A stretch of DNA of 64,000 nucleotides from a virus (taxonomy: Duplodnaviria > Heunggongvirae > Uroviricota > Caudoviricetes): the IMG/VR virus record IMGVR_UViG_3300045988_146577; one strand, written 5' to 3'. The notes below the pieces were generated by a model that worked only from the letters and a program-made list of their open reading frames with translations, was not told where the DNA came from and made no database searches. The position numbers and the translations under genes were made by a program. This document shows positions 3,646-35,312 of the stretch, piece after piece. Every line of letters begins with the position of its first letter. Position 1 is the stretch's first letter.

Positions 3646-3700
3646 CCTGCTTCCGTATATATTTAATAAGTTACTTATTATTTATATATACAGAAGCAGG
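3646..3700. repeat. 55-bp AT-rich imperfect palindrome (copy 1)
   Basis: CCTGCTTCCGTATATATTTAATAAGTTACTTATTATTTATATATACAGAAGCAGG; near-identical copy at 35258-35312. Confidence 0.6.
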
Positions 3701-3805
3701 CTCCTAATGGATACCAAGAACAACATAATTTGACTCCAACCCCAGATGCTATGTCATTGACAGATTTATCAAGGGAGATCATGTTAGAATCAGTGTTTTA
3801 GCCTC

Positions 3806-4879
3806 GTGGATATTGTCACCATGCGCATGAATAGACTTCCAGGATATGGCCTTACCGAACTGGCTTTTTGGCCTCAGCCTAAATATGAACGGAATAAATG
3901 GTCGATGTTCTGTCTGAAACTCCGTAATGATGGAACCCTTGCTTGGTATCGGCGATATGTTGATCGTGGTATGCCAAACCACGCTTTTGATGACGACTAC
4001 GATAACTATCCTGAAGCAAGAAAAGCGGCATTAGAGCTGAATAAAAACGTGAGCTTTGACATTGAAAAACTTCCTCTATCTATGTTTCAAAAGAAGTCAT
4101 TGCGTTTGAAAGTTGACAAAGCACTCAAAGCCAAATCACGTCTCATGGATGAAGAGCATATAATGCTCAACGAAGCAATTAAGGCACACGCCAACGATCC
4201 GCGAGTGACATTAAATGAGTTAATAATTAACCCAGATTACGAAACTTTGCGTCAACCCCTTTTTGACGTGCTAAGCGAGATGCCTTACTTACATTTTGTT
4301 TTTCTTCCCAAATTCCAAGTTTCACTTCAACTCGTTGCTCCTAACACTTGGGAATGTTCATATAACAACAAAGCTAAGACAGCGAAGATCTGCTACCAAG
4401 AACGCATAGCCAGAGGTTTTGGTTTATCAGGCGCTGCACATTGGGGAAAAACAAAAGCGACTATTCGCTCAATGCTTCTGCCGCGTGCTAACCGGTTACT
4501 GCAACTCGCCAGCGTAAAAAGAATGCTGGATGAAGCTCTCAGGAATGGGCAAAAGGTACTGGTTGTTGGCAACTTTGTTTTCTGGTTTGAGGACAAAAAT
4601 CAGGTAGGTTGGAGTGTTAAAGTTGCTAGCGAAAGCGAAACCACCTCAAGAGGCAATACGCTCTGGAAAGAAGGAACTATCATTTCAAAAAATCACGGTC
4701 GAATTGTCGTGCTGCCGTATACAAAAGAAAACGGTAAACATGTAAAAGGTTATACCAAGAATGCCCCTAACGACGGCAACGCAATTCCGAGACATAAGGA
4801 TGAGTATGTCGAGTTGCCCTTTGAAATTTTGGATGGTGACTTGATGTTCAGTCTGTTCGGTGAGCTTAACTACGAATAG
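3806..4879 (+). CDS. hypothetical protein (357 aa)
   Basis: Long ORF divergent from replication genes; GTG start per ORF track; no recognisable domain. Confidence 0.45.
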   Translation: MDIVTMRMNRLPGYGLTELAFWPQPKYERNKWSMFCLKLRNDGTLAWYRRYVDRGMPNHAFDDDYDNYPEARKAALELNKNVSFDIEKLPLSMFQKKSLRLKVDKALKAKSRLMDEEHIMLNEAIKAHANDPRVTLNELIINPDYETLRQPLFDVLSEMPYLHFVFLPKFQVSLQLVAPNTWECSYNNKAKTAKICYQERIARGFGLSGAAHWGKTKATIRSMLLPRANRLLQLASVKRMLDEALRNGQKVLVVGNFVFWFEDKNQVGWSVKVASESETTSRGNTLWKEGTIISKNHGRIVVLPYTKENGKHVKGYTKNAPNDGNAIPRHKDEYVELPFEILDGDLMFSLFGELNYE

Positions 4880-4939
4880 CTTTCATAGAACGAAATATTT
4901 CTAAGGCTGTCCAATGCAGACCAGCCTTAGAGATTTATA

Positions 4940-5299
4940 TCAACCTTTCTTCATCAACTCTCGTTTGATTTCATCGGTACGCATCGTGACATCGGCAGCG
5001 GTGATCGCCTCATTCAATTTCACGATGTCCTCGATTTCCTGCGGTGACTTCTCTGCCAGATGGAAAATGGCTGCTCGAATCACGTCAGAACGAGTGAACT
5101 TCTCGAAGCGAGGGATGAACTTCATCATCTCCAGCAGTTCGAAGTATTCGTCCTCCAGTGACATTGTGCGGCTTTTAATTTTCTCTTTGCCACGAGTCGG
5201 GCGTCCCTGTGGTCTGACTGGTTGGCGCAAAGGAGTTGTGTTCTTAGCCGGTGCATCAGGCTCTTTGCGCTTTGCTAGGTCACCCATTTTCATGGACAT
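4940..5299 (-). CDS. small basic protein cotranscribed with ParA; candidate centromere-binding partner (ParG/ParB-like role)
   Basis: Start overlaps parA stop (5299); Lys/Arg/Pro-rich N-terminus then predicted helices; position-based inference. Confidence 0.4.
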   Translation of the reverse strand: MSMKMGDLAKRKEPDAPAKNTTPLRQPVRPQGRPTRGKEKIKSRTMSLEDEYFELLEMMKFIPRFEKFTRSDVIRAAIFHLAEKSPQEIEDIVKLNEAITAADVTMRTDEIKRELMKKG

Positions 5300-5967
5300 T
5301 ATTCTTCTTCCTCCAGACTCAACAGATAATCTACAAATTCTTCAAACTCGGCTTCCGCCTTTTTGTCGCGCTCGCTACCGGTCATTTCAAAGATAGAACG
5401 ACCAGACTCTTCCGCATCATCATAGACGTTGCGGTTATATAGATTGACTGGCGCAGACTCGATTCCAAACGTCTCAACAATCTCTTTAGCCGCCAGAATG
5501 CGAGACACTTGTGATGGCAAAGCCGGGCACTGGTTCATGACCGCGCGGACCTTCACTTTATCGTTTACATTGCGAACATTGTCGATAATAGGATCGATGT
5601 CACGTAAAGATTTCAAATCACGACGCTTAGGACGCAGCGGGATAATGATAACGTCAGCCATCAGCATCGCTTGTCGCTGAATTTCGGAGTCGAAGCCACC
5701 AGCATCTACCACTACAAACTCAGCTCTACCCTGAAGCGATTTTAGGTGCTTAATGATGTCATCCTGAACGTATGCAAAAGGAATCAGCTCAAGGTCTTCG
5801 TTCTGTCGACGGTCTTCACACCAGCTCGTTGTCGTGCGCTGAATATCTATATCGGTAATATAAACCTTCTTCTTCTTTTTGACTTTCATGCAAACGGCAA
5901 TTTGCTGGGCAACGGTGGATTTGCCAGGCCCGCCCTTTGTGCCGCCAACCACAAAGATCTTGGTCAT
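5299..5967 (-). CDS. parA: ParA-family partition ATPase (small, type Ib-like)
   Basis: Deviant Walker A VVGGTKGGPGKST, 222 aa; class-1 palindrome about 36 nt upstream of start. Confidence 0.8.
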   Translation of the reverse strand: MTKIFVVGGTKGGPGKSTVAQQIAVCMKVKKKKKVYITDIDIQRTTTSWCEDRRQNEDLELIPFAYVQDDIIKHLKSLQGRAEFVVVDAGGFDSEIQRQAMLMADVIIIPLRPKRRDLKSLRDIDPIIDNVRNVNDKVKVRAVMNQCPALPSQVSRILAAKEIVETFGIESAPVNLYNRNVYDDAEESGRSIFEMTGSERDKKAEAEFEEFVDYLLSLEEEE

Positions 5968-6002
5968 TGGAGAGTTCCCTTTGCGTATATAATTATCGTC
6001 TG

Positions 6003-6018
6003 AAACAACTTGTTTTCT
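6003..6018 (-). promoter_or_regulatory. class-1 palindrome in parA leader
   Basis: AAACAACTTGTTTTCT about 36 nt upstream of parA start. Confidence 0.5.
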
Positions 6019-6285
6019 TATATGTGATATAGCCTAAATGCCTACGGCTGCGGTGTAAAGGTTAAATGGTAGGTTGTGATTAACAATTGGCAATCATAGC
6101 TTGTATTTGTCTGTTGAAAAAAGTAACAATGACCTCTATATTACAAGTACGGTGATATGCCGTACACAATTTGATAATGCACACGTAATGGGCTATAGCC
6201 TTTTAAAGTAATTTTTGAGTCGAAAACTCAGTTTGAACAGAGGAGATTGATGGCCTTCCTACATCACGGCCATCAGGAGGAATAC

Positions 6286-6555
6286 ATGTCAGCACTAAAA
6301 AAGCAGCGCATCGATTTGAGATTAACCGATGACGATAAAAGCATCATCGAGGAAGCTGCCGCAATGTCTAACCAGAGCATTACTCAGTTTATGGTTAGCA
6401 GTGCATCTGAACGTGCCGTGAAAGTTATAGAGCAACACCGTAGACTAGTTCTGAATGAAGAATCCTGGAATCTGGTTATGGACGCTATAAGCAATCCTCC
6501 GGCACCGAACGACAAGCTGAAACGAGCTGCTGATCGTCTGAAAAGCATGGAGTAG
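6286..6555 (+). CDS. DUF1778-type antitoxin (TacA/KacA-like)
   Basis: About 90 aa ORF immediately upstream of GNAT toxin; AGGAGG RBS 7 nt before ATG at 6286 (ORF track starts 6247). Confidence 0.7.
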   Translation: MSALKKQRIDLRLTDDDKSIIEEAAAMSNQSITQFMVSSASERAVKVIEQHRRLVLNEESWNLVMDAISNPPAPNDKLKRAADRLKSME

Positions 6556-6562
6556 TTTACTC

Positions 6563-7084
6563 GTGAGCAATACAACGATAGAGATTTTCTCTGGAGAGAA
6601 AGATTATGATCTAAACGGTTTTGATTGCGGCGAAGAGTCACTAAACGCCTTTTTAGCCAACCACTTAAAAAGGCAGCATGAGGGAAAAATTCTTCGTGCT
6701 TATGTGCTTTGCACTCAAGAAGAAAGGCCAAAAGTGTTAGGATATTACACTTTGTCAGGTAGTTGTTTTGAAAAGGAGTCCTTACCTTCAAGAAGCAAAC
6801 AAAAGAAGGTTCCTTATCGGAATGTTCCAAGTGTTACTTTGGGTAGGCTGGCTTTGGACAAGTCCCTTCAAGGTCAAGGATTTGGCTCAATGCTTGTAAC
6901 ACATGCAATGCGCGTTGTGTACAATGCATCTCTTGCTGTAGGCATTCATGGACTTTTCGTTGAGGCGTTAAATGACAAAGCCAAGGCGTTTTATAAAAGT
7001 TTAGGCTTTATCCAGCTGGTTGGTAACAACGAGCGTTCTTTGTTCTATCCTACAAAATCTATCGAAAAATTGTTCGAAGAATAA
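6563..7084 (+). CDS. GNAT-family acetyltransferase toxin (TacT/AtaT/KacT-like, aminoacyl-tRNA acetylating family)
   Basis: 173 aa GNAT fold with GQGFGSML motif; GTG start 8 nt after antitoxin stop; classic antitoxin-toxin order. Confidence 0.75.
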   Translation: MSNTTIEIFSGEKDYDLNGFDCGEESLNAFLANHLKRQHEGKILRAYVLCTQEERPKVLGYYTLSGSCFEKESLPSRSKQKKVPYRNVPSVTLGRLALDKSLQGQGFGSMLVTHAMRVVYNASLAVGIHGLFVEALNDKAKAFYKSLGFIQLVGNNERSLFYPTKSIEKLFEE

Positions 7085-7116
7085 TGTGTTCCCCTCATTT
7101 GAGGGGAACTTCGACA

Positions 7117-7302
7117 TCACCAACCACAAACCCTCTCTCCCATCGTATTGTGAAAAAGGATTTGGCGTTCGGTTTCTTCAGTCATTACATCATTATTGCT
7201 GATATAGATAGGCTCAGCCCCATCGCAGAACAACACGCTGGCTGTTTGTGGTTTAATGACGCACCCACTTATCATACAACTCACGATGAACGGCAGAAGC
7301 AT
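7117..7302 (-). CDS. putative o-spanin (Rz1-like lipoprotein), overlapping Rz in another frame
   Basis: Signal peptide MLLPFIVSCMISGC with lipobox-like ISGC; embedded in the 3-prime end of the i-spanin ORF; start moved to M11 of track ORF 7117..7332. Confidence 0.4.
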   Translation of the reverse strand: MLLPFIVSCMISGCVIKPQTASVLFCDGAEPIYISNNDVMTEETERQILFHNTMGERVCGW

Positions 7303-7504
7303 CTTTCTGACGTATTTTACTGCTCGTCTCATTCACCACTTTCACTGTGTTTTGAAGTCGTTTTCTGTCTTCCTGTTTTGCCTTCTCTTCCATTGCTCGT
7401 CGCGCCGCATTCCCGCCCATCGTGTAAGCGCCGACAAGAACGAAAAGAACGGCAGCCAGCGTAATCAAAGCAACTTTTAGCTTTGTCATCAGGCTGCCTA
7501 GCAT
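7253..7504 (-). CDS. putative i-spanin (Rz-like)
   Basis: N-terminal transmembrane helix then charged coiled-coil segment; directly downstream of putative endolysin. Confidence 0.5.
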   Translation of the reverse strand: MLGSLMTKLKVALITLAAVLFVLVGAYTMGGNAARRAMEEKAKQEDRKRLQNTVKVVNETSSKIRQKDASAVHRELYDKWVRH

Positions 7505-7505
7505 A

Positions 7506-8225
7506 TTAGACCATCCCTTTCTGGTGTTTTCTTACCTGCGACCAGGCAATGAATCCTGCCACAACAATAGTGGCAATACCGAAGATGATGCGTACTGTAT
7601 CCCCGCTAGAGATATGACCTTGTGCTTTATCCATAGCAGCGGAAACCTGCGGCATAACATCGGCCAGCTGCGCCAGACCAATACCTGCTGTAACAGTTGC
7701 GCCTGCGGTTTCTTTAGTTACAGGAACAGCCTTCACGGTTTTCACCGGCTTAACAACGCCAGCTCGACGCAGACCTTCCTCAATAACTTCTGCCGCATAC
7801 CAGGTGTTCAGCGTTTTTAGCGGACCTCGCCCATTCTCATGGCGAATGATTGCCTCAACCAAAGGTCGAAGAATGTCGTAATCATGCAGATCGATAATCA
7901 TGTCTGCGGTTACACCAACGGCTTTAGACACCTCATTAATGTAGGCGTCAGTATTATTTTCATTCGGCGGTGCCCAGCGTTCAATAACTTCACGAATGGT
8001 ATCGATACTTGAGCCGTCTTTTGCGCGACGTTTGTCGTGGTAGGTAATTAGAGTCACCGCCAGCGCACGAATCCCCCAAACAGGGTCTTTAAACGTGCAA
8101 AAGCGCGGTTCGTCTGGATTCGCAACCAGACCTTGCCACGGTGATCCTTTATCAAGATTACCGGGGTTATTATTACGAATGCCTCTCGGAGTCTTCATCC
8201 TTGATCTCCTGTTATTGCAGTCCAT
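7506..8225 (-). CDS. putative lysis-cassette protein (possible endolysin; C-terminal transmembrane helix)
   Basis: Position between holin-like and spanin genes; conserved-looking GIRNNNPGNL motif; C-terminal hydrophobic helix. Function is position-based. Confidence 0.4.
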   Translation of the reverse strand: MDCNNRRSRMKTPRGIRNNNPGNLDKGSPWQGLVANPDEPRFCTFKDPVWGIRALAVTLITYHDKRRAKDGSSIDTIREVIERWAPPNENNTDAYINEVSKAVGVTADMIIDLHDYDILRPLVEAIIRHENGRGPLKTLNTWYAAEVIEEGLRRAGVVKPVKTVKAVPVTKETAGATVTAGIGLAQLADVMPQVSAAMDKAQGHISSGDTVRIIFGIATIVVAGFIAWSQVRKHQKGMV

Positions 8226-8547
8226 TTTTTACGCCATACGCGGCTAACCCCAAAAGCAGTGCAGTAATAATGAACGACGTTATTTTAGAAACAATGCCGC
8301 CAAAGAACCCACTGGAGATGGAATCTAACCGGTTAAGGAGTTTGTCCAGATTGGAGTGTTGAATACTATGTTGCGCCGGGGTCATATCACCAAAGTAGGT
8401 TTTCAGCTGATCATTGACCTCCTGGCCAATTTCTTCACGTAGCTCTTTACCTAATTTACCAACAACCTCCCGAGCAACGATCGCGGCAATACGCTCAACT
8501 TGCTCTGTTGTAACGCCCGCCATCTCGTTCGACATGTTTTCCTCCAT
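8212..8547 (-). CDS. holin-like small membrane protein
   Basis: 111 aa, single C-terminal TM helix, first gene of the lysis cluster, preceded by a terminator and a class-2 palindrome. Confidence 0.35.
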   Translation of the reverse strand: MEENMSNEMAGVTTEQVERIAAIVAREVVGKLGKELREEIGQEVNDQLKTYFGDMTPAQHSIQHSNLDKLLNRLDSISSGFFGGIVSKITSFIITALLLGLAAYGVKNGLQ

Positions 8548-8597
8548 GAAAAGTCAAATCGGGATGGCGGATTTATATCACATTTCACCCTTTTGTT

Positions 8598-8620
8598 GTA
8601 GGTGTGTACTTACCTATCTA
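8598..8620 (-). promoter_or_regulatory. class-2 palindrome upstream of lysis cassette
   Basis: GTAGGTGTGTACTTACCTATCTA, downstream of tail-fibre terminator hairpin. Confidence 0.45.
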
Positions 8621-8737
8621 TGTATATACCGTTTAACGGCTGTTCAAATTCGTATCTAGTAACTCACTAATATATCCCTATGATTGCGGCTGTGAGATCG
8701 CATTTTAAACCTCACAGCCATATAAATAATGTCTAAA

Positions 8738-11700
8738 TCAGTTACTTGTTGCCCCAACAGTACCGGCAAATTTCAGCCATTGACCTGACGGACTTCTATT
8801 ACTGCGGTAGTGATAAACGAGGATTGCGTTTGTCACTCCACCGTAATCAGCTTTATGTGACGTTGTTAAACGAATTGTATAATCACCGTTAGGTAGATTA
8901 AAAACTTCGATTATAGATTCTGCTAATTCTACAGCACCAAATCCCGTTATATTGTTGATACTGCCAGCATTGAATCCCATAGCATCGCCAAAGCCAATCC
9001 AATATCTTTTGCTAAACGCCCCATTTGATTTAAGGTGGCTAATGAATGTGGACAAACTCATGCCCATATCCCCACCTGAAATAGAGGAAGTTCGCACAGT
9101 CATGCTTGGAAGAGCACTGCTCTTCACATAGGAACTTAGAAGATTCGTTACCTCTGTTTTCGTATAAGCATTAAGGTTAGCCGCAGTCAAAGTAATATCG
9201 GCAGAGCCATCAAACGCCACACCAGCAATTTTCCTTGCTGTCTGCAATTTTGTGGCGGTTGCAGCATTACCAGTAGTGTTCTGGTTCCCATCTGCATTCA
9301 CACCTGGGATGCTGTCTTTTTTAGTATATATCTGAGTCCAGTCCTCTTCGAACCCATAGCCATCACGTGATGAACGGTAATACAATCCACCATTTTTATA
9401 ATGCGCTCGGATTTGGAGAGTCCGACAACTACCTACGCCTATATAAAAATTTGCAACGATATAAGAATCCCCGGAGCGTGTAACATTATACGCACCTGAT
9501 TCGGCATTCCACGGGACCGCACCACTAGTATCGGCATAAGTTCCAGTAGCGCGTCGAGCAAAAGCAGATACATTTGCAGCTGTTAGTGTTATATCAGCAG
9601 AACCATCAAAAGACACGCCGCTTATTTTTCTAGCAGTTTGCAACTTCGTAGCTGTTGAAGCATTACCGTTCAAACTACCATTTACGCCACCAGTAACATT
9701 TAGTCCATTACCAATGGACACAGCACCGCTGGTATTATTAATTGTAATAGGTCGCAAACCGTTCCATGAACCTAATGTGTTTCCTGATGCTGTTAGCATG
9801 AAATATGTGTTCGATCCATCATTACGGATAAAGAACCCAAAGCTACCGTAAGCAATGCGGAAACCATTTGCATATTTTGAAACGATCTCACCAGAAGACG
9901 TTAATCCGCCAGTTAACGCTCCTCCAGATAGTGGTAAAGCTCCGACATCAGCCGCAGTAGGCTTGTTTTTAGTGTTATACGCTCTGCGCCATCCTGGTGA
10001 ATAGCTCGTCCCGTTAAATACATAGATAAACTCCGCATTAGTGAGAGCACCAGAGACACTCGTCGTTGTGGCCGTTGTTATACGGATCGTATAATTGTTT
10101 GAGCTACTACCGTTATTAAATACCTCAATAACTGCGCCAGCCAGTGGAATAATGCCGCATCCTGTTTCGCTGTCTGGTATGGATGCACTATTTGCATACG
10201 CCCAAGCACAACGCGCTATCCATGCCTTTGCATTAAAAGCACCATTATTTTGCAATAACGTCACTAACTGTGCTGTTGTTATTGCTCCGCCATTACTTCC
10301 TGTAGTTAACCAACCAGTAGGAGATGCCGGGCAACCTATATTTGTTGGCGACAAGGAAATATTTGCCGAGCCGTCAAACGACACCCCATTGATAGTACGC
10401 GCAGTCTGCAACTTCGTAGCAGTAGCCGCGTTGCCCGTTGTATTCTGATTACCAGTCGTATTAACACCTGGCAAATTAATATTCGCAGTACCATCAAAGC
10501 TCACGCCGCCGATAGTTCTTGCCGTCTGAAGTTTTGTAGCAGTTGCAGCATTACCAGTGGTGTTCTGATTACCCGTAGTATTTACACCTGGAAGGTTGAT
10601 ATTTGCAGAACCGTCGAAACCAACTCCACCGATAGATCTTGCCGTCTGCAATTTCGTTGCTGTACTTGCATTACCATTTAATGTTCCGGTGATCCCACCA
10701 GTAACAGACAACGGACCTGAAACTGTTCCTCCGGTTGTTGGCAGTGCTCCAATATCTAACGGCGTCGGTTTCTGATGTGTGCTATACATCGTATAAACAA
10801 CACCATCGGTAACGCTGGAAGGCTTACTAGCTGAATATGTTGGCGATGTATAAATAGAAACTGTCGCATTTGCAGTACAATCCCAATGGATATTTACACG
10901 AGTCGCATAATTGCCAATCTCAACGTAAATATCATATGTATCGCCGGATGTGTTGATCCAGGCGAAATTCGTTAATCCGACAGCTGTACGCTTCCACAAA
11001 GCACCTGTAATCCCTTTGGGGTTTCCATTGCCTGCTCGTAGAACCAGTTCTGAAATGCCTGCCTGATGTGGGGAGCCGACGTTGTAACCAGCGCCACCAA
11101 TCAATGCGATGTAAACGATGGAACTCGCTTGTGGCATTGTAACAGTAGCCAGTTTGAACCACCCGGCCCCGCCAGAGAAAGACATCGTTATTGAATTTAA
11201 AGTACCAATATCTTTCGGCGTTAATGTGATATCCGCAGTCAGTGCTTTACCGTTAACTTTTCGGTTAGATGGCACCCTGCTATTCGCATTGTCATTGGCT
11301 GCTTTAACTGCTTTTGGCGTTGCGGCCAGCGATTCACTGGTGCTATCAACAGCACTGCTAAGTTTCACAACACCTTTAGTTGTAAGGCTTGCGTCTTCCA
11401 TCGCAACTGCACCGGCAATCTCTTCAGCACGATCAGCAGCAGCTTCCGCACGGGTCGCAGCGGATTCAGCAGCAGTTTTGCTCTGAGATGCTGCCGTCGC
11501 ACTGCCTGCCGCCTCTGTCGCCTTCGTGGATGCTGTCGTGGCGCTGCCCTTCGCTGCGGACGCTTGTCTGGTCGCCTCATCTTTTGAAGCAGACGCCGAT
11601 GATGCCGATGACGCCGCCGAACTGGCGGACGATGCGGCAGCCGTTTTTGAGGATTCTGCGCTGGTTTCCGACGCTTTCGCGTTCGTTTCGGATGTCTTCG

Positions 11701-12763
11701 CTGCGGAAGCTGACCTCGCTGCTGCGCTGGCCTGTTCAGTGGCTTCGCCAGCCTTCGTTGTGGCTGTTGAAGCGGATGATGCGGCGCTTTCTGCCGATTT
11801 TCCGGCGGCGGTGGCACTGGCTGAGGCCTGCCCGGCACTTGTTGACGCGGCACTGGCAGACGACGCAGCCGCTGTTTTTGAGCCTGCCGCAGCTGAGGCG
11901 CTCTGTCCCGCTGCCGTCTCAGAAGACCTGGCGTTCGCCTCGGACTTTTTTGCCGCCTTCGCGGAATTTCCTGCCGCCGTTGCCGAGGAAGCGGCACTAC
12001 TGGCGCTCGAGGATGCGTTCGTTTCTGATGATTTCGCTGCCTCTTTTGAGGCCGCCGCATCCCGGGCTGAGGTGGCAGCTTCTGACGCCTTCGTGGTCGC
12101 GGTGGATGCAGAAGTGGCTGCAGATTTTTGTGACGCTGCAGCATTCGTTTCAGACGTTTTCGCGGCACCGGCACTGGTGGCCGCCGCGCTTTTTGAGGAC
12201 TCTGCAGCGGATGCACTTTGAGACGCTTGAGAGGCTTTTTCTCCAGCGGTATTGGCGCTTTCTGCTGCTGCGGCAGCACTGGCCGCCGCCTCACGAGCTT
12301 TGTCGCCAGCAGCATCAATCGCGTCAGTGTTATTTTTATACCACTCAACGTTTTCGTTGTGCTCGTTGACGATCTGCATTAGCGGCTTAACGGTCACTTC
12401 TGTACCGTCTTCACGCTCGATTGTCACCTCATCCAGAGCAGTCAACCAACTGCGCATGGACTTGGAATCAGCCGACATACGCGACATTAGTGCTGTAAAG
12501 CGCGCGCTAAACTGTGTTAAGTCGCCTTCATAGGTCGTAATGATTCGGCACGGAACTTCAGACTGAGTTTCGCCGGTATAAGGTTCTGAGAGAACAATGT
12601 TCGTATCGCTTATTACGCGCTTGATCTCATACAGCTTATTGTCGGGGCCAATGACGATCATCCCCGGCAACACACCATTAGCTGTTACGTTCCAGGCTGT
12701 CCCTGCCCCAACCAGAGTATTGCTACCCTGTGTAAATGTGATAGTACCTTCCCTGTACCACAT
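8738..12763 (-). CDS. tail fibre protein with repeated GNAATATKLQTAR (phage tail-fibre repeat) units and a long Ala/Ser-rich low-complexity segment
   Basis: 1341 aa; at least 5 copies of NTTGNAATATKLQTAR-type repeat; directly downstream of J-like gene. Confidence 0.8.
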   Translation of the reverse strand: MWYREGTITFTQGSNTLVGAGTAWNVTANGVLPGMIVIGPDNKLYEIKRVISDTNIVLSEPYTGETQSEVPCRIITTYEGDLTQFSARFTALMSRMSADSKSMRSWLTALDEVTIEREDGTEVTVKPLMQIVNEHNENVEWYKNNTDAIDAAGDKAREAAASAAAAAESANTAGEKASQASQSASAAESSKSAAATSAGAAKTSETNAAASQKSAATSASTATTKASEAATSARDAAASKEAAKSSETNASSSASSAASSATAAGNSAKAAKKSEANARSSETAAGQSASAAAGSKTAAASSASAASTSAGQASASATAAGKSAESAASSASTATTKAGEATEQASAAARSASAAKTSETNAKASETSAESSKTAAASSASSAASSASSASASKDEATRQASAAKGSATTASTKATEAAGSATAASQSKTAAESAATRAEAAADRAEEIAGAVAMEDASLTTKGVVKLSSAVDSTSESLAATPKAVKAANDNANSRVPSNRKVNGKALTADITLTPKDIGTLNSITMSFSGGAGWFKLATVTMPQASSIVYIALIGGAGYNVGSPHQAGISELVLRAGNGNPKGITGALWKRTAVGLTNFAWINTSGDTYDIYVEIGNYATRVNIHWDCTANATVSIYTSPTYSASKPSSVTDGVVYTMYSTHQKPTPLDIGALPTTGGTVSGPLSVTGGITGTLNGNASTATKLQTARSIGGVGFDGSANINLPGVNTTGNQNTTGNAATATKLQTARTIGGVSFDGTANINLPGVNTTGNQNTTGNAATATKLQTARTINGVSFDGSANISLSPTNIGCPASPTGWLTTGSNGGAITTAQLVTLLQNNGAFNAKAWIARCAWAYANSASIPDSETGCGIIPLAGAVIEVFNNGSSSNNYTIRITTATTTSVSGALTNAEFIYVFNGTSYSPGWRRAYNTKNKPTAADVGALPLSGGALTGGLTSSGEIVSKYANGFRIAYGSFGFFIRNDGSNTYFMLTASGNTLGSWNGLRPITINNTSGAVSIGNGLNVTGGVNGSLNGNASTATKLQTARKISGVSFDGSADITLTAANVSAFARRATGTYADTSGAVPWNAESGAYNVTRSGDSYIVANFYIGVGSCRTLQIRAHYKNGGLYYRSSRDGYGFEEDWTQIYTKKDSIPGVNADGNQNTTGNAATATKLQTARKIAGVAFDGSADITLTAANLNAYTKTEVTNLLSSYVKSSALPSMTVRTSSISGGDMGMSLSTFISHLKSNGAFSKRYWIGFGDAMGFNAGSINNITGFGAVELAESIIEVFNLPNGDYTIRLTTSHKADYGGVTNAILVYHYRSNRSPSGQWLKFAGTVGATSN

Positions 12764-12807
12764 GTTGAATATGCTCCTTGATTTGGCGGGCTATCCTTGC
12801 CCGCCAT

Positions 12808-12826
12808 TAAGTAAATACTTACCTAT
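12808..12826 (-). promoter_or_regulatory. class-2 palindrome upstream of tail fibre gene
   Basis: TAAGTAAATACTTACCTAT followed by hairpin and AAGGAG RBS. Confidence 0.45.
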
Positions 12827-12856
12827 TTTTACCGATATAAAATTTTTTTTCCACCA

Positions 12857-19723: not shown

Positions 19724-19746
19724 ATAGTAAATTAGTACTTACTTAT
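19724..19746 (-). promoter_or_regulatory. class-2 palindrome upstream of gpL-like gene
   Basis: ATAGTAAATTAGTACTTACTTAT. Confidence 0.45.
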
Positions 19747-19754
19747 CCAGATAC

Positions 19755-20090
19755 TTAAGCCTCAAATACTTGTCTGAATGTAGCAGTTAAGACACAGTAC
19801 CCCTGATATCGCTTGACCGTATGACTGTCACATACAACTACAATCCGTTTTCCTCTTGGATTAACCCAATAGAACGACTCAACGCCTGCTCGCTCAGTCA
19901 GGAAGTCATCGATTGCATTAATTTCGTTGTATGATCTGGTAAAGGTTAACGACCATTCTTCTTTAATACGATTAAGACCTTGAGCCTGTCGCTGCTCGTA
20001 GTCATCACCAAAATTAAGTATCGTTACATTCGGTTTTACGCTTTTTTCAGATTCGTAATCTGGATACCAATTAAACGTTTGTCTTTCCAT
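19755..20090 (-). CDS. lambda gpM-like minor tail protein
   Basis: 111 aa ORF between tape measure and L; position and size. Confidence 0.65.
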   Translation of the reverse strand: MERQTFNWYPDYESEKSVKPNVTILNFGDDYEQRQAQGLNRIKEEWSLTFTRSYNEINAIDDFLTERAGVESFYWVNPRGKRIVVVCDSHTVKRYQGYCVLTATFRQVFEA

Positions 20091-24987: not shown

Positions 24988-25067
24988 GGCGTAGTGAGCA
25001 ACTACACGACTGAAATAGAATCCGAGATCTATTGAGACGGTCCTTGTCCCGGATTCATCGCGGGAAA

Positions 25068-25385: not shown

Positions 25386-25440
25386 TGGTTAAAATCCTTT
25401 TAAAAGAGAGGCCCATCCTGAGCCTCTGCTTAATTACTGA

Positions 25441-26187: not shown

Positions 26188-26235
26188 TGATGGAAAACTC
26201 CTTTTTCCGTTAATTCTACGCATTCATTGCGCTAA

Positions 26236-26255
26236 TAGTAAGTATATACTTACTA
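26236..26255 (-). promoter_or_regulatory. class-2 palindrome (perfect) upstream of major tail gene
   Basis: TAGTAAGTA-TA-TACTTACTA perfect dyad. Confidence 0.5.
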
Positions 26256-26261
26256 ATTGAG

Positions 26262-26618: not shown

Positions 26619-26646
26619 CAAACTTGCAAACGCTTCAATAAACACA

Positions 26647-28368: not shown

Positions 28369-28802
28369 TACTCACCGCCTTGTGCTTTCAGGATGCCTTC
28401 AATCATCTCGACAATTCCTTTCGCTTTGACACCAACCTGATTACCAATCACACGTAGACCGGCAATGCCTTCATTGTCTGCAATTGACTCCAACTCTTCT
28501 CGTGTGAAAGTCTGGATCTGTTTGGCCGGTTCATCTGGTGTCCCACGTTTCATTGGCACAATGTCAGGTGCTGCTGGCTCGGTAATCAGGTCTGCGGTCA
28601 ACTCGCCACGATCACTGTATGCGGCAGACGGAGAAACATTTTTGCCCTCGACTGTTGATGCTCGCATTGAGGCACAAATCCTTTGCTGATCGATAAAAGG
28701 CAACTCCGCTACGGACACCCCGTTCTCGAACTGAACGCCGCACAACATTCCCGAATAACCGGAAAATTGCGGTTCTAATAAAACAATTTTTGCTGGTTTC
28801 AT
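28368..28802 (-). CDS. virion morphogenesis protein, unknown function
   Basis: 144 aa ORF translationally coupled to the downstream gene. Confidence 0.35.
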   Translation of the reverse strand: MKPAKIVLLEPQFSGYSGMLCGVQFENGVSVAELPFIDQQRICASMRASTVEGKNVSPSAAYSDRGELTADLITEPAAPDIVPMKRGTPDEPAKQIQTFTREELESIADNEGIAGLRVIGNQVGVKAKGIVEMIEGILKAQGGE

Positions 28803-28846
28803 AACGCATTCTCTCTACATGGGCGGCTTTCGCCGCCCAATATTGA

Positions 28847-29767: not shown

Positions 29768-29781
29768 TTCTTGCTCCTACA

Positions 29782-29810
29782 AAAAGGGTGGGCGTATAGC
29801 CCACCCTTTA
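29782..29810 (-). terminator. hairpin downstream of capsid gene
   Basis: AAAGGGTGGGC-gtata-GCCCACCCTTT. Confidence 0.55.
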
Positions 29811-29813
29811 ACA

Positions 29814-29832
29814 TAGATAACTACTTATCTAC
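29814..29832 (-). promoter_or_regulatory. class-2 palindrome between capsid and decoration genes
   Basis: ATAGATAACTACTTATCTA next to terminator hairpin 29782-29810. Confidence 0.45.
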
Positions 29833-29840
29833 TACACTGA

Positions 29841-30716
29841 TTAAATTTTTACATTGGTCAGTGCAGCGATAGCCTTATCATGCTTATTCGCCAGAGAGCA
29901 GTACCACTTCACACGGGTACGTACTGCGTCTTTGTTCTGTACAGTGCCAATGTTTTCAACAACGATACCTGCGTTGTCGCCGCCATACAGACCAGTAACG
30001 CCGTTCTCTTCTGACAGGTGCAGGCAGTAGATGCTTGCTTTGCCAGAATCGGTCGGGATGAAGTCGTTGATGATGAACGGAACGCCGTTATGACACAGCA
30101 TCGGACGACCGAAGTTCTCCATCATGATTTCAGACGGGCCTACGTTTACTGTACGCAGCAGCGCACGGTAAGCACGCAGGTGCTCTGAACGCATCATGAT
30201 GCAGTCAGCACCAAGATCTTTCACCGCATCGACCAGTTCGTCGAACATAGAGAAAGTCATAGATGCACCGGCGATATCGATCTTCTGATCTGCGTGCATC
30301 AGGCGTGGAATGCCGTCAAACGCCTTGTTGTTGGAGCTGGAGTCACCCAAAATCAGGTTGCGACGGAACGCACGAGCCAGACCTTTAACTTTCTGACGAA
30401 CCTGAATAGCCAACTGGTTGTTGGTGTCGGCCATAGTGGTCGCCAGGAATTTATCAACGTCTACGTCACCAGCCAGAATACGCAGTTTCGCAACGCATTC
30501 TTCGAAGGTTGCTGCACCTTCAGGGATGGTGTCGTTAACGTCGATGAAGGTAGCTTCACTCAGCGTTTTTTCACGGTTGTACAGATATGCCTTTGAATTA
30601 ATTTTCATAAAAGGCAGGATGGCAAACAGGTCATCGCGATCGATGATGGTTTCAATCACGCCCTGTTCAAGTTCGTTGTTAGACAGCTTTTCAGCTTCTT
30701 CACGCAGTAATGGCAT
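29841..30716 (-). CDS. major capsid protein
   Basis: 291 aa, position after scaffold, followed by strong terminator hairpin. Confidence 0.65.
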   Translation of the reverse strand: MPLLREEAEKLSNNELEQGVIETIIDRDDLFAILPFMKINSKAYLYNREKTLSEATFIDVNDTIPEGAATFEECVAKLRILAGDVDVDKFLATTMADTNNQLAIQVRQKVKGLARAFRRNLILGDSSSNNKAFDGIPRLMHADQKIDIAGASMTFSMFDELVDAVKDLGADCIMMRSEHLRAYRALLRTVNVGPSEIMMENFGRPMLCHNGVPFIINDFIPTDSGKASIYCLHLSEENGVTGLYGGDNAGIVVENIGTVQNKDAVRTRVKWYCSLANKHDKAIAALTNVKI

Positions 30717-30741
30717 CTATCAATTCCCTTTGATTTAGATG

Positions 30742-31629
30742 TTACTTAAGTCCAATTTTCCCCAGACCGGAGGCCAACTTATCCATAGTCGACTTGTTCT
30801 TCGGTTGGGATATTGTGTAGGTCGATTTGGAATGTGAGCCTACACCCTGCTTGGCTTCGCTACGCATCAATGCGTCAGCTTCCGGATCTGCCCGCACAAT
30901 GCGTTCAATCGCGGATTCAAACGGCAACGGCTTACCTTCACCGTCAACCAGAACAGCTCGTTCTTTATGACCTGCCGGTTTGTCATAACCCACTACGCTA
31001 CCGTCTTCACCCACTTCAAAATGAGAACCGTAGATCACGCGGGCTTTTGCCGGAGTCATCAGAACTTTGTCACGTAGGAAGAGAGAGTTACTGAAGGAAG
31101 CGCCCACGGTCATCTCGACTAATTGAGATTTCAGTGATGCGTTTTCACTTTCCAGTGCTGCATAACGTTCGTCACGCTGTGCCAGCTCTGCCTGGTGTGC
31201 TTCGATCATCTGTTTTTTAACAGCATCGAACTCACCACGACGCTCCAGTTCAGCTTGCTCCGCCTCACGACGTGCGTTTTCTGCGGCCTGTTCAGCTTCT
31301 AAAAGCTGGCGAGCACGCGCCGGGTCGATATCACCGTACTGAGCAAGCTGATCGGCCAATGTGCGCTCTTTCTCTTTGCGCTTCATGTTCTCTTTCAGCA
31401 GTTCAGCACCAGCTTTCTTGGTTTTGCGAAGTTCGGCCAGTAACTCTTCATGAGTCATGCCAGCGTATTCGTCATCACCCTTCGGCTGCTCTTTTTGTTC
31501 ACCCTGTTTGTCAGGATCTTGTGTACTCTGCTCATTATCAGCAGCTACACCGCCAGCGCCTCCACGCTCATGCGCTTCAGCAACACCCATCAGACCACGA
31601 CGGGCCAAAAGCATTTGCCACAGTTGCAT
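30742..31629 (-). CDS. head scaffolding protein
   Basis: Coiled-coil, Glu/Ala/Arg-rich central segment; between portal and capsid. Confidence 0.55.
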   Translation of the reverse strand: MQLWQMLLARRGLMGVAEAHERGGAGGVAADNEQSTQDPDKQGEQKEQPKGDDEYAGMTHEELLAELRKTKKAGAELLKENMKRKEKERTLADQLAQYGDIDPARARQLLEAEQAAENARREAEQAELERRGEFDAVKKQMIEAHQAELAQRDERYAALESENASLKSQLVEMTVGASFSNSLFLRDKVLMTPAKARVIYGSHFEVGEDGSVVGYDKPAGHKERAVLVDGEGKPLPFESAIERIVRADPEADALMRSEAKQGVGSHSKSTYTISQPKNKSTMDKLASGLGKIGLK

Positions 31630-31650
31630 AAAAATTCCCTTTGTTACTTA

Positions 31651-33225
31651 TCACTCGTTCTCTTGAGTAGATGAGTCCCCATTCCCTCGGGGTTGATCTT
31701 GCCCGCTTTCTTGGGCTGCGCCTTGATCATAAGTAAGTACTGACTTATTTTCAAGAGTATTTAGATCATTTTTTGGCGGAAAATTCAAGAGATCTTTATC
31801 AAATTCCTTCTTCATCGCCTCAGTGATGTTCGGGAAAATCTTCTCAATCAGCATTTCCATCTGGTGACGACGTACAGAGTCCGGTGCCTGAAGTAACGAC
31901 AGTTTCTCGGCAACAGAAAATTCATCAGTAAGGCCACGAATATCGAAACTTTCTGGATACGCAATTAATGAGTGGTCTTCGTCCAGATCTACCCCCATCC
32001 ATTTCGCAACCAGTAGCATGATTTGGCGTTCAGCCCTTTCCAGACGCTCTGCTTTTGTGACAAGCAAGCTATTTACACGCTGGAAGTCATACATTTTTGC
32101 GGCACCAGATGAGTTATCGATTCCCTGTGCGTTGTCCTGCTTCGTTCGCTCACCAGCTACACCAACTGAATGGTAGATTTCGTTAATCACCGTCTTAATC
32201 GTAGTGATGATCATCTGAGCTTGTTTCGGGTCTGGTGACAGATAAAACGGCTGGTTTCCACCTTCAGAATCGTAGGTGAAGACTCGCTTTGTGCCCATTT
32301 CAAGCACTTTAGTGTGGTTTTCATCACCAGGTAAAAGCGACTGTACCGGTATAGCCAACTGGCTAAATGTCTGATCCTGAATAATGGCATCAAGGTTTGA
32401 CAGATAGTTTGCAACCGCACGATCAAGATAAGCGATATCATCGATCAACGATGGGCTGAAATACGGTGATTCACTTTCTCCAATACAATCAACAGGAAAC
32501 ACAGGAACTACGCCGAGATTATGCTCACCGCTATCCTCTAAAATAACTTTTGCCTGACGGCGACCTGCTCCACCAGCGCCCTTCTTCACTTCCTCACGGA
32601 ACAGATACCACTCGTTTTGTGTCCACAGACGATAACGTTGGTATTCCTGACCTGTAGAAGTAAAAGGATCTGCGTCATCACGAGCGACTTCCACAATTAA
32701 CGCCCACAACATATTCCCGTCGTCGTCCCATGCCACATCCAGCATTTGCTGAGGTGAAATCCAGTAGGCGTAGGCGCGAGCATCTTTCTTTTTCTCGTCA
32801 GCTACTGACTCAACATCACCACTCATCGTGCTATCGACAACAACCCATATGCGACCGTAAATAGACGACTGCAAATCAATAGCGGCCATAAATGAGTCAA
32901 TAGAGGCATTCTGGCGAGTCGCACGTTTCCAGAAATTGCGGATCTGCTCTGGTGCCTCTTCGATATTTCTATGAATGTCTTCTTTAAAGAGATATTTGTT
33001 GATGAGGTTTACCACCTCACGAGTGTGGTTGAAGCGATAAGCACGCTCAACTCGCTCCTTAAACTCCTGATCTCCCTCTTTAAAGTAACGAAAGATATTG
33101 TCTGTAAACCAACCACGCCCGCCAGCGTAAGTGCTGGCGAGGAAGTCCCAATGTTCTTTTTTCTTTTCGTATTCCGGGTGGCGTCGCGCCACCAGATCCT
33201 TAATTTGTTTGTCGTTCAATTCCAT
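31651..33225 (-). CDS. portal protein
   Basis: 524 aa immediately downstream of large terminase; acidic C-terminus. Confidence 0.75.
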   Translation of the reverse strand: MELNDKQIKDLVARRHPEYEKKKEHWDFLASTYAGGRGWFTDNIFRYFKEGDQEFKERVERAYRFNHTREVVNLINKYLFKEDIHRNIEEAPEQIRNFWKRATRQNASIDSFMAAIDLQSSIYGRIWVVVDSTMSGDVESVADEKKKDARAYAYWISPQQMLDVAWDDDGNMLWALIVEVARDDADPFTSTGQEYQRYRLWTQNEWYLFREEVKKGAGGAGRRQAKVILEDSGEHNLGVVPVFPVDCIGESESPYFSPSLIDDIAYLDRAVANYLSNLDAIIQDQTFSQLAIPVQSLLPGDENHTKVLEMGTKRVFTYDSEGGNQPFYLSPDPKQAQMIITTIKTVINEIYHSVGVAGERTKQDNAQGIDNSSGAAKMYDFQRVNSLLVTKAERLERAERQIMLLVAKWMGVDLDEDHSLIAYPESFDIRGLTDEFSVAEKLSLLQAPDSVRRHQMEMLIEKIFPNITEAMKKEFDKDLLNFPPKNDLNTLENKSVLTYDQGAAQESGQDQPRGNGDSSTQENE

Positions 33226-33236
33226 TTGAATAACCT

Positions 33237-33255
33237 TAGATAATTACTTACCTAT
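33237..33255 (-). promoter_or_regulatory. class-2 palindrome between terL and portal
   Basis: TAGATAATTACTTACCTAT overlapping terL stop, 12 nt from portal start. Confidence 0.45.
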
Positions 33256-34508
33256 CGAGAGCCACCAAGAATAACACGGTTTTTGACTGGATACCTACGA
33301 TGTACTGGATAGCCCAATGCGTCTGCACTATGCTCAATGCCACCTGTCTTATCCATATCTCGTGTTCCAGGCTTGTAGATGACTTTTTCCAGTGAATCAA
33401 TCAAATGCTTGCACTTCGGATCGATATACAGCCGGATATCTCCAGATGCGGTCATCAGCATTCGGTTAACAGCATTAACACGATCCGCAATTGGCGGGTG
33501 CTTTTTCGAATAATCGACACGTAAGAATCCCTTCTCTTTGAATATGTCGACGTCAGACTCCCCGCGAGCATGTTGGCGATAAGCACCTGCCGGATCTGGA
33601 AATACCGTTATCTGTGATTTCCAGCGCCAGAAGCGTCTCTCAAGCTCATCACAAACCTCTGCCGTGTTAGAGGAAAAGAGCACCAATTCATCAATTGCCC
33701 ATAGCTCACCATTTGGCTGAGGTTGCAAAATTACTGAAGACATCGGGTCAATGTTGAAGTCCTGCCCTACCCATATAGGCAACCGAGGGTTGAACTGAAG
33801 CGGTTTTACATGCACGTTACGATCGAACGGGTAGTAAACGCGCCCGGACATGTTCTCAAAGCTCGCCAGGTACTCCTGAGCGAACGATTTCGGGTCCATA
33901 TCGTTCTTAGCAGCTTCAATTTCCGCCGTAGGTACAAACGGAGAATCGGCAGTTACAAACTGCCAGCTCTTCCACTGTCCCTTTCTTTGCAGCTCTACGT
34001 TCTGGCCTATAGTCCACAGTTTGTGAAATTCCGAGAAGCCTTTTGGCGTACCAATGATCAGTGCACCGCCGCGTGTCGATGAAAGAGTAGGTCGTAACAC
34101 CTTGTACCAGGTGTCAGCCTTCATATCCTGAAATTCATCAAGCACTACAAAATGCAACGCTACGCCGCGCAGAGTGTCAGGCTTATCAGCACCTTTGAGG
34201 GCGATCTCCGAACCGTTCTTCAACACGATTGTCATCGTGGTGTCGTTCTTTCTCCTAACCCACTTACGAGGCAGAACTTCCTGTAGATCGTCCCACAAAA
34301 TCTGGCGAGCCATCTGGTAAGTAGGAGCGACATACCAGACCCTTTGCTTTTTTTCCTTTGCCGCCGCACGAATAATAGTGGAGATCGACAACCGGGATTT
34401 TCCCCAGCGTCGACCAGCACAAACAACTTTAAATCGATGCGGAGACTGGAAGACTTTCATCTGTCCAGAATGCAGTTGCACAAGACTGAGCGAGGACGGG
34501 ATTGCCAT
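33252..34508 (-). CDS. terminase large subunit
   Basis: Walker A-like GRRWGKS, Walker B-like FVVLDEF, C-terminal nuclease-like acidic residues; 418 aa. Confidence 0.85.
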   Translation of the reverse strand: MAIPSSLSLVQLHSGQMKVFQSPHRFKVVCAGRRWGKSRLSISTIIRAAAKEKKQRVWYVAPTYQMARQILWDDLQEVLPRKWVRRKNDTTMTIVLKNGSEIALKGADKPDTLRGVALHFVVLDEFQDMKADTWYKVLRPTLSSTRGGALIIGTPKGFSEFHKLWTIGQNVELQRKGQWKSWQFVTADSPFVPTAEIEAAKNDMDPKSFAQEYLASFENMSGRVYYPFDRNVHVKPLQFNPRLPIWVGQDFNIDPMSSVILQPQPNGELWAIDELVLFSSNTAEVCDELERRFWRWKSQITVFPDPAGAYRQHARGESDVDIFKEKGFLRVDYSKKHPPIADRVNAVNRMLMTASGDIRLYIDPKCKHLIDSLEKVIYKPGTRDMDKTGGIEHSADALGYPVHRRYPVKNRVILGGSR

Positions 34509-35140
34509 TATTCGTCCTCCCCTTCACTTCCATCATCTGTCGCATCAAATTCGCTTAGAGCTTCTTCTTCCAACGTCTCAAGCAATTCGTCATCGATGAT
34601 TTCAGGCTCGTCGTCTTCCTGACGTAATTTCGCCACCTGGGAAGGCGTAAGCTCACCAAATACCAGGTTCGGAATTTCTTCCTCGTCATTTTCCGCATGA
34701 TCCATGCCCAATGCTTTGGACGAAACTTCAAAGCATTTTGCAAGGGTATTACTGGCTCTCTGTAAGCTCTTGAGAGAATCCTCAATCGCCCCTAAAGGCT
34801 TACCCTCACGTTTGGCCGTAGTGACTTCGACCATCACCATCTGCCCCAACGCATACGCCCAGCCGTCATAACGTGTACGACGTTCTTCTATCTTTTCCGC
34901 ACGGGCTTTAGCGCGAAGCTCTGCGTCAGATTTAAGAGACTCACGAACCATCTTCCCAACAGAGTCCGCGCCTTTCTCTAATCCTCGCTTTTTGAAATGT
35001 CTGGAGAGTGTTTCACGACGAATGCCGTACTCTTCCTCCAGCTTTGAGAGTGTATATTCGCCTGACGTCCATTTGGCTTCAGCTTCGGCCCACTCCGCTG
35101 GTGTCAGGCGAGTTTTTACCTCGTCTTTTTCGACCGTCAT
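34508..35140 (-). CDS. terminase small subunit
   Basis: N-terminal HTH (TLSKLEEEYGIRRETLSRHF), acidic C-terminus, stop overlaps terL start. Confidence 0.6.
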   Translation of the reverse strand: MTVEKDEVKTRLTPAEWAEAEAKWTSGEYTLSKLEEEYGIRRETLSRHFKKRGLEKGADSVGKMVRESLKSDAELRAKARAEKIEERRTRYDGWAYALGQMVMVEVTTAKREGKPLGAIEDSLKSLQRASNTLAKCFEVSSKALGMDHAENDEEEIPNLVFGELTPSQVAKLRQEDDEPEIIDDELLETLEEEALSEFDATDDGSEGEDE

Positions 35141-35205
35141 AGATCCCTCTAAAACACACAGAGCGCGTCCATGCGCTCTAAAACAACTTGTTTACTGCAT
35201 CTTCT

Positions 35206-35221
35206 AACCAACTTGTTTTCT
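35206..35221 (-). promoter_or_regulatory. class-1 palindrome upstream of terminase small subunit
   Basis: AACCAACTTGTTTTCT; degenerate second copy at about 35181-35196. Confidence 0.45.
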
Positions 35222-35257
35222 GGGGTGTTTAATTAGGTCTGGGCATGTCTTACTAAG

Positions 35258-35312
35258 CCTGCTTCCGTATATATTTAATAAGTTACTTATTATTTATATA
35301 TACAGATGCAGG
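35258..35312. repeat. 55-bp AT-rich imperfect palindrome (copy 2)
   Basis: Same sequence as 3646-3700 with one substitution; about 120 bp upstream of terminase small subunit. Confidence 0.6.

Follow-up and report, generated by a model that had tools for sequence, protein, structure and literature searches.

A long palindrome at three conserved sites of SSU5-like phage-plasmids, a candidate hairpin between transcription blocks

In the tI/sib region of phage lambda, a hairpin can end a transcript, and read-through past it lengthens the helix, which is then cut by RNase III. Here we compare such sites with a palindromic element of the virus record IMGVR_UViG_3300045988_146577 (Caudoviricetes), of which a stretch of 64,000 nucleotides was analysed (the whole stretch is called the window below). 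Comparison with relatives places the window among the phage-plasmids of the SSU5/pHCM2/pLF82 type. In Klebsiella, Escherichia, Enterobacter, Salmonella and Yersinia, phage-plasmids of the SSU5-like group, which includes pMT1, pHCM2 and pLF82, rank among the most frequent, and some carry resistance genes; almost nothing is known of their cis-acting signals. A preliminary description of the window had noticed a 55-bp AT-rich palindrome that occurs twice, near the replication genes and near the terminase, and had proposed a bidirectional terminator, a packaging (pac) recognition element or an operator. The element proves longer than that description could show, occurs in more copies and is far better conserved. 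We found no account of it in the searchable literature, and no terminus or transcript-end data for SSU5-like phages in the papers searched. Our tentative reading is that it is a conserved RNA hairpin that insulates transcription blocks by termination, possibly with RNase III processing.

One palindrome at three fixed positions

The 55-mer CCTGCTTCCGTATATATTTAATAAGTTACTTATTATTTATATATACAGAAGCAGG at 3646-3700 recurs at 35258-35312 with one substitution (A3695 versus T35307), just as first noticed. This recurrence is not expected by chance (0 matches in 100 dinucleotide-preserving shuffles), and the window holds no further match at three or fewer mismatches. The palindrome is imperfect: its outer arms of 17 nt are 94% complementary, its inner arms of 16 nt are 88% complementary, and the two dyad centres are shifted by 1 nt relative to each other. 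At the first copy (site A, inner palindrome of 55 bp at 3646-3700) a GC clamp, CCTGCTTC/GAAGCAGG, encloses an AT-rich core, and the bases next to the clamp are themselves partly symmetric (AAAGA-CCTGC...GCAGG-TCTTT). Every copy lies inside a longer dyad, formed by an outer inverted repeat of the type GGTCTGGGAG...CTCCCAGACC that stands 13-29 nt to either side of the core. With these outer repeats the total hairpin measures 110-140 nt, more than had been described. The outer arms of site A are GTTGTTCTGGTGGT (3619-3632) and its partner ACCAAGAACAAC (3713-3724), the latter on the side of the lineage-variable cargo. At the second copy (site B, inner palindrome of 55 bp at 35258-35312, with the substitution at 35307), GGTCTGGGCA (35236-35245, plus strand) makes a helix with GGTCTGGGAG (35325-35334, minus strand), which lies 2 nt past the stop codon of the open reading frame (ORF) at 35337-35603. 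Outside these arms, the window shows no enrichment of the outer-arm motif GGTCTGGGAG. An Rfam search judged by gathering score and E-value gave no match, only a far-sub-threshold likeness to microRNA hairpins.

Relatives of the window carry three copies (A, B and C) at fixed syntenic positions. Site A precedes the phrog_2500-helicase-primase operon, site B lies between a small gene resembling winged helix-turn-helix (wHTH) genes and the promoter of terS, and site C, beyond the window, follows an adenine methyltransferase gene. In the E. coli relatives site C is about 1.6 kb past the position of the window's right end, and its flanks match nothing in the window. The orthologous copies in Salmonella phage SSU5 are found at 33458-33513 (site A, after SSU5_037), at 78304-78360 (site C, after the adenine methyltransferase gene SSU5_088) and across the junction of the record ends (site B, after SSU5_130); site B also has its ortholog in pMT1. 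A scan of IMG/VR with one arm of the palindrome returned at least 120 stretches, in which site classes were assigned by flank mapping. The matches listed include at least 112 palindromes of 52-57 nt in which the synteny holds, with 13 flank variants of site A, and in these matches the polarity relative to genes is identical for all copies.

A 121-nt query built on site B found 2804 places on 800 plasmids in PLSDB, among them plasmids of Klebsiella (313), Escherichia (237), Enterobacter (92), Yersinia (62), Salmonella (49), Citrobacter (25), Cronobacter (10) and Shigella (8). This set is essentially all enterobacterial plasmids that encode this TerS, and pMT1 of Yersinia pestis belongs to the family carrying the element. 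Conservation in relatives, which the preliminary description had named as a check, thus extends to about 800 enterobacterial plasmids of at least eight genera. One plasmid gave a single match to the site B query: on the 146-kb conjugative IncFIB/IncY plasmid pTAir-3 of Enterobacter sp. (NZ_CP063951.1, 94782-95634), the match is to a copy of the site A type between flanks of the E. coli type, perhaps an SSU5-like fragment that moved to another replicon. In a scan of 596 Gb of genome contigs with a 15-mer arm, too short a pattern for that amount of sequence, all matches shown were chance-like, and the single candidate from enterobacteria, a Kluyvera contig, was confirmed as a chance match. The idea that relatives of 70-76 kb are deletions between two copies failed for one record, pRM13322, which is an incomplete linear record.

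Transcript-end signals and RNA structure

The minus strand carries nearly all genes of the window and is called the sense strand here; it is probably also the functional sense of site A. The copies sit where transcription units would be expected to end. In SSU5 each of the three lies 20-30 nt past a plus-strand gene and ahead of the next plus-strand gene, and in SSU5, pMT1, the K. oxytoca lineage and Cronobacter every copy separates the end of a same-strand gene from the operon that follows. Directly 3' of the site A hairpin on the sense strand stands a T-tract, TCTTTT (3640-3645, minus strand), followed by AAAAGAC; the tract is kept in 12 of the 13 variants among the matches listed. Sense tails read TCTTTT(AAAAG) at site A and CTTTTT or CTGTTTT at site C, where most variants have a U-tract. 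Scored in the style of TransTermHP, they average -3.54 at site A and -3.12 at site C against a background of -2.13, and the tail of the window's own site A reaches -3.64 (window background -2.13, standard deviation 0.62). The GC clamp directly adjoins the tail, as in intrinsic terminators. A simple terminator scanner misses the element because of a bulge in the AT-rich upper stem.

Regions of 136-146 nt around the copies fold on the sense strand to between -51 and -57 kcal/mol, with z about -8.5 (for site A, 3600-3745 on the minus strand, -57.4 kcal/mol and z -8.5), and on the other strand to between -49 and -51 kcal/mol. The cores alone account for -15 to -32 kcal/mol, which makes them stable GC-containing stem-loops such as intrinsic terminators have. 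The helix is near-continuous over at least 20 bp and is extended by sequence downstream of the tail, as in RNase III sites of the sib type. In an alignment of 12 diverse site B sequences, 95.6% of the cells are paired (92.6% in the outer helix). The covariation score is 0.121 versus 0.090 in shuffles, none of 500 shuffles reaches 0.121, and all slid controls are lower as well. Compensatory double changes are found at two pairs of the outer helix, both in one lineage, and at one pair at the base of the inner helix. The asymmetric loops of 13-29 nt between outer and inner stems fit a single-stranded fold better than a duplex cruciform.

More distant lineages show what occupies these positions when the palindrome decays. 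In the lineage of K. oxytoca pCAV1752-111, whose TerS is 65% identical, site B is a degenerate large hairpin, the base of its stem changed yet paired, followed by T8. At sites A and C of the same lineage the left arm and the dyad are lost, and an ordinary GC hairpin with a T-tract is present within about 60 nt downstream. The Aeromonas and Acinetobacter relatives carry ordinary single-copy terminators upstream of terS; as the Acinetobacter hairpin there is single-copy, the repeated family is specific to the enterobacterial group. Together, the tails, the replacements in K. oxytoca and the Aeromonas and Acinetobacter terminators suggest that the A, B and C positions need termination, which the palindrome would normally supply.

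On this basis we propose that the two palindromes of the window represent sites A and B in a family of three long hairpins, placed at the ends of the three main same-strand gene blocks. Transcribed on the sense strand, each copy would form a hairpin of about 25 bp, whose GC-rich base would abut a short U-tract at sites A and C. The hairpin would then serve as a factor-independent terminator or insulator that keeps transcription of the upstream block from entering the next lytic operon: transcription from the cargo and partition genes would stop at site A, short of the helicase-primase operon, and that from the ParB_N/ABC/wHTH operon at site B, short of terS-terL. Because the outer stem lies beyond the tail, it would form only in read-through RNA. 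There, pairing of the outer inverted repeat would give a helix of about 45 bp interrupted by internal loops, built like the sites that RNase III processes. What carries this proposal is the position of the copies, their structure potential, their conservation and their tails, from which we infer termination, processing and which genes are expressed in lysogeny.

Several observations weigh against the insulating hairpin. In the window itself, copy A does not follow the end of a same-strand gene but comes after two convergent genes; as the preliminary description had recorded, it lies between the divergent ORFs 2789-3529 (minus strand) and 3806-4879 (plus strand). Site B has no sense-side U-tract in most lineages. 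Its tail in the window, CTTAGTAAGACATGC, scores -2.49, near background, with a T-run, TCTTTAAAT, on the plus strand, and the asymmetry between sense and antisense tails is small at sites B and C. On the sense strand, sites A and B have more G.U than A.C pairs, but in the Salmonella-type site C the mismatches on that strand are A.C, so that the strand signal is inconsistent in a test already confounded by a possible transcription-linked C-to-T bias. The sequence is also more constant than expected. Of the 19 inner pairs in the alignment of site B, 14 are invariant. The clamp, CCTGCTTCC/GGAAGCAGG, does not change from Escherichia to Cronobacter, between flanks that share 77-87% identity. Such constancy exceeds the need of a structure-only element and points to sequence-specific recognition or homogenisation. 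In K. oxytoca, moreover, sites A and C share a nearly identical non-palindromic version, which takes in part of a coding end and probably arose by recent conversion. The invariant clamp, the non-palindromic A and C copies of K. oxytoca and the tail of site B therefore make it likely that the element has a sequence-specific partner, on RNA or DNA, or is strongly homogenised.

As for the bidirectional terminator that had been proposed, its terminator part gains from the gene-end positions, from the tails at A and C and from the ordinary terminators of the distant lineage. Bidirectionality has weak support: in the window, the T-tail of copy 1 is on the minus (sense) strand and that of copy 2 on the plus strand.

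The copies do not evolve independently of one another. The AT-rich centre is the variable part of the element; among the matches listed it is lineage-specific yet common to the sites within a lineage. Sites A and B have the same centre in the window and similar centres in SSU5, and in a third lineage the likeness extends to all three sites; in Cyrano, A differs from B. Judged from these aligned copies, the lineage-shared centres indicate concerted evolution. At pair 9, the C/T and G/A arm alleles are found in all four combinations. Site A is also a junction of modules. Homology between the window and its closest E. coli relatives ends at 3701, the edge of the palindrome, and among the matches listed site A has at least seven unrelated sequences next to it on the sense-upstream side and a constant one downstream. 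Most of the sense-upstream contexts bear a TCTGG-type arm. Such a pattern would be expected for variable cargo ahead of a conserved boundary element. Around site B, four-gamete and Hudson-Kaplan analyses found pervasive recombination and no hotspot at the palindrome.

Alternative roles of the element

The near-invariance of the GC clamp and the concerted evolution are left unexplained by a terminating hairpin, so that we regard DNA-level roles, taken together, as a serious possibility. As a replication element, the palindrome would offer an AT-rich unwinding core and inverted protein-binding clamps, and so act as a lytic origin, or its hairpin would be extruded and cut to start recombination-dependent replication. 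Its 35 bp of almost pure A/T between invariant inverted GC clamps suit this role, site A stands directly upstream of the phrog_2500-helicase-primase operon, and the invariance of the sequence suits recognition by a protein. The family encodes Mre11/SbcD-like, Rad50/SbcC-like, RecA-like, FEN and UvsW-like proteins, and concerted evolution with hybrid arms is what recombining copies would be expected to leave. However, two of the three copies are far from the replication genes, no iterons, DnaA boxes or isolated half-sites were found, and the GC skew does not shift at the sites. The four-gamete analysis gave no hotspot at site B, and K. oxytoca lost the dyad at two of its three sites, where the only visible replacement is terminators. 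We consider a replication element unlikely. It is very unlikely, in our view, that the palindromes are programmed DNA structures, instead of or besides RNA signals, which after induction are extruded or folded on the lagging strand and cut by the phage Mre11/Rad50 (SbcCD-like) proteins. If true, such cutting would supply a circular plasmid-prophage with double-strand ends for T4/T5-style recombination-dependent replication with its RecA-like, UvsW-like and FEN proteins, and would also explain why the copies evolve in concert, why modules join at site A and why the SSU5 reference is broken inside copy B. Recognition by a DNA-binding protein of the plasmid or phage, at dispersed partition centromeres (as in N15) or at a set of repressor or roadblock operators, would fit dispersed near-identical palindromes with invariant inverted clamps. 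Partition-type genes are near two of the sites, that for ParA at 1.6-2.3 kb from site A and those for two ParB_N proteins at 1.2-3 kb from site B. A centromere-like repeat array is not seen upstream of parA, and a centre that is lineage-specific but common to the sites of one lineage resembles co-evolution with a protein. We nonetheless find this reading improbable: site C is not near any partition gene, the dimensions (clamps about 38 bp apart, a core that varies between 52 and 57 bp, an outer spacing that varies between 13 and 29 nt) are awkward for a rigid complex, and the outer arms are compensated at one site only, not at all three. To our knowledge the element bears no resemblance to known parS sequences, which counts against a partition centromere. 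The operator proposed in the preliminary description, from a likeness of the central dyad to the class-2 motif (TAAGTA..TACTTA), is weak as well: its half-sites are spaced differently, and across lineages no part of the element is less conserved than the centre.

A packaging signal had been proposed too, and copy B does begin 118 bp upstream of the terS start (35140), close to the 120 bp or so first estimated. In addition, the SSU5 record starts and ends inside copy B, the break falling on the sense strand between ...ACTTATTA and AATATATACGG.... Record breaks inside the site B palindrome are seen in SSU5 (NC_018843, positions 1/103299) and in Cyrano (OV696614, positions 1/108379), 1 nt apart. 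The Cyrano record appears copied or reoriented to match SSU5, its source paper containing no terminus mapping, and the SSU5 break may just as well have arisen where the assembly stopped at a hairpin; the family's other records are either circular or begin at a different place. A pac or cos site would be expected once per genome, whereas here there are three near-identical copies, two of them 25-33 kb from terS. TerL is about 25% identical to both Jersey-like and T5-like terminases, from which the packaging type is not inferable. With only one of three near-identical copies beside terS and a terminase type that TerL does not assign, the proposal of a pac element gained no support, and a recognition or cleavage site for packaging is highly improbable. 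That the palindrome is neutral or selfish, a REP- or MITE-like repeat held similar by gene conversion and at most a homology patch for module exchange, would account for the concerted evolution (A equals B in the window and not in Cyrano; A equals C in K. oxytoca, part of the coding end included), for the presence of all four arm-allele combinations at pair 9 and for the cargo/backbone junction at the site A palindrome. It would not account for three syntenic positions and a polarity kept in at least eight genera and about 800 plasmids, nor for a clamp far more conserved than the intergenic DNA around it. By inspection there are no target-site duplications (flanking direct repeats), and no extra copies or half-sites are present. 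We judge a neutral repeat to be a poor candidate, about as improbable as a protein-binding site. A mobile repeat of REP or MITE type with many non-syntenic copies is excluded by the strict synteny at exactly three sites. A protelomerase target (telRL) was rejected too. The palindrome has the expected size of about 50 bp, but neither SSU5 nor K. oxytoca has an annotated protelomerase; the records of the relatives are circular, and a target present three times would break the genome into pieces.

Returning to a hairpin between transcription blocks, the unexplained invariance of its sequence is the feature most worth following. An element that bounds the structural, replication and regulatory blocks in three copies offers a handle on the silencing of lytic genes in the plasmid state and on the sites of cargo exchange, and possibly also on the start of lytic replication or packaging. 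It may account for the reference and assembly breaks of this family at site B, and it supplies a diagnostic signature of 15-17 nt for the family.

Genomic setting and comparison with known systems

In matched stretches the window is 95.9-100% identical to Escherichia phages CMS-2020a, PhiR41_1 and Cyrano (= pLF82), and about 77-86% identical to Klebsiella relatives and Salmonella phage SSU5. Downstream of site A, the helicase-primase operon opens with the phrog_2500 gene (2789-3529, minus strand), whose ORF spans 2789-3538 with a probable ATG at 3529 and whose product has no recognisable fold or family; it is followed by genes for a DnaB-like helicase (1405-2745, minus strand) and a primase (142-1395, minus strand). 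The sense-upstream side of site A is occupied by a lineage-specific cargo gene, phrog_22329 (3806-4879, plus strand). Just ahead of site B ends an 88-aa gene of phrog_900 (35337-35603, minus strand) with faint winged-helix similarity, the last of an operon with two ParB_N genes and an ABC-ATPase gene; this gene is syntenic in SSU5, pMT1, K. oxytoca and Cronobacter. The operon as a whole (35337-38528, minus strand), directly upstream of terS, encodes two proteins with a ParB N-terminal domain, an ABC-type ATPase, a 296-aa protein and the 88-aa winged-helix-like protein, and is kept from Yersinia pMT1 to K. oxytoca. The 296-aa protein is named an ABC transporter ATP-binding subunit in PHROGs and has no Pfam match. 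A UvsW-like helicase is encoded at 38593-40152. SSU5 encodes, at 63215-66446 and 53367-55656 (beyond the window), Mre11/SbcD-like and Rad50/SbcC-like proteins, a RecA-like recombinase and a 5'-3' flap exonuclease, and with this set the UvsW-like helicase makes up a T4/T5-like recombination toolkit in a plasmid-prophage.

Downstream of site B, the late operon opens with terS for the small terminase (phrog_867, 34508-35140, minus strand), next to TerL (33252-34508, minus strand). The terS promoter and leader (35159-35221, minus strand) lie between site B and terS and contain two AGAAAACAAnTTGTTT-type motifs at 35177-35196 and 35202-35221. Downstream of these promoter-like motifs, the leader holds a terminator-like GC hairpin with GTGTGTTTT (35159-35180, minus strand), an arrangement which suggests that the late genes may be under attenuation or antitermination control. 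If late antitermination does operate, read-through across the hairpin elements becomes relevant.

The AGAAAACAAnTTGTTT motif (sense strand) is partly palindromic and occurs at least ten times just upstream of operons, including those of parA, the helicase gene and terS, the last with two copies. Its sites are 2761-2793, 5999-6031, 35177-35234, 45515-45543, 46000-46028, 47649-47668, 48133-48165, 50766-50834, 62433-62465 and 63166-63194, and it is probably a family-specific promoter or regulator site. A 61-nt family related to it is found at 46726, 50797, 54735 and 57873. The class-2 motif takes the form of TAAGTA-N2-6-TACTTA dyads or of TAAGTA in tandem; it occupies short gaps between genes, in most cases just ahead of the ribosome-binding site of a minus-strand gene (109-126, 3551-3565, 12808-12826, 19736-19762, 26239-26257, 31730-31745, 38529-38551 and 47248-47266). 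Four of these sites fall within the late operon, about 6.5 kb apart, and the centre of the 55-bp palindrome is only loosely like the motif. Conventional GC-rich terminators also occur elsewhere in the window, as a near-identical pair at 44117-44151 and 44388-44422 (GGCGCCCACTATGGGCGCTTTT twice) and as TTAAGGCCACCAGCATTGGTGGCCTTA terminator hairpins at 45668-45694 and 46140-46166, inverted copies that flank a gene. A perfect inverted repeat with 16-nt arms is located at the start of a 561-aa methyltransferase gene (60791-60834). Diverged repeats at 9155-10675 have a common 77-nt core and are 60-77% identical, three consecutive copies being 120 nt apart and other spacings 396 and 768 nt; they lie inside a 1341-aa ORF (8738-12763) that is probably a tail fibre gene by synteny with SSU5.

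Among described systems, the element resembles Rho-independent terminators with an upstream A-tract, the bidirectional type, in the GC-rich stem base next to a T-run, in its place at the 3' end of gene blocks and in the AAAAGA...TCTTTT symmetry around the stem. Unlike intrinsic terminators, which have stems of 5-10 bp, it has a stem of about 25 bp (55 nt), it comes in three near-identical copies conserved across genera with an extra outer stem beyond the tail, and copy B usually has no sense U-tract. Lambda tI/sib and the RNase III sites of T7 share with it a long helix that is extended downstream and contains internal loops, and a place between genes of long phage operons; there is no sequence similarity to them, cleavage of the element is suggested by this analogy, and antitermination here by the terS-leader hairpin. 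Like the REP/BIME sequences of enterobacteria, the copies are repeated intergenic palindromes downstream of genes that evolve in concert, but they are borne by phage-plasmids at three fixed syntenic positions, are AT-rich with a GC clamp and have no similarity to the REP consensus. The dispersed centromeres of N15 are likewise palindromes scattered over a phage-plasmid, some of them in lytic gene regions; the likeness is one of architecture, and the spacing and length of the element are much larger than those of typical ParB/SopB sites. With oriS/oriL of herpes simplex virus (HSV) and oriL/oriR of SPP1 it has in common inverted boxes around an AT-rich centre, several copies and one copy beside the replication genes. 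It differs from those origins in that two of its copies are lost in one lineage, and the features it shares with terminators and with sib-type sites are those on which we base the proposal of a conserved hairpin at the ends of transcription blocks.

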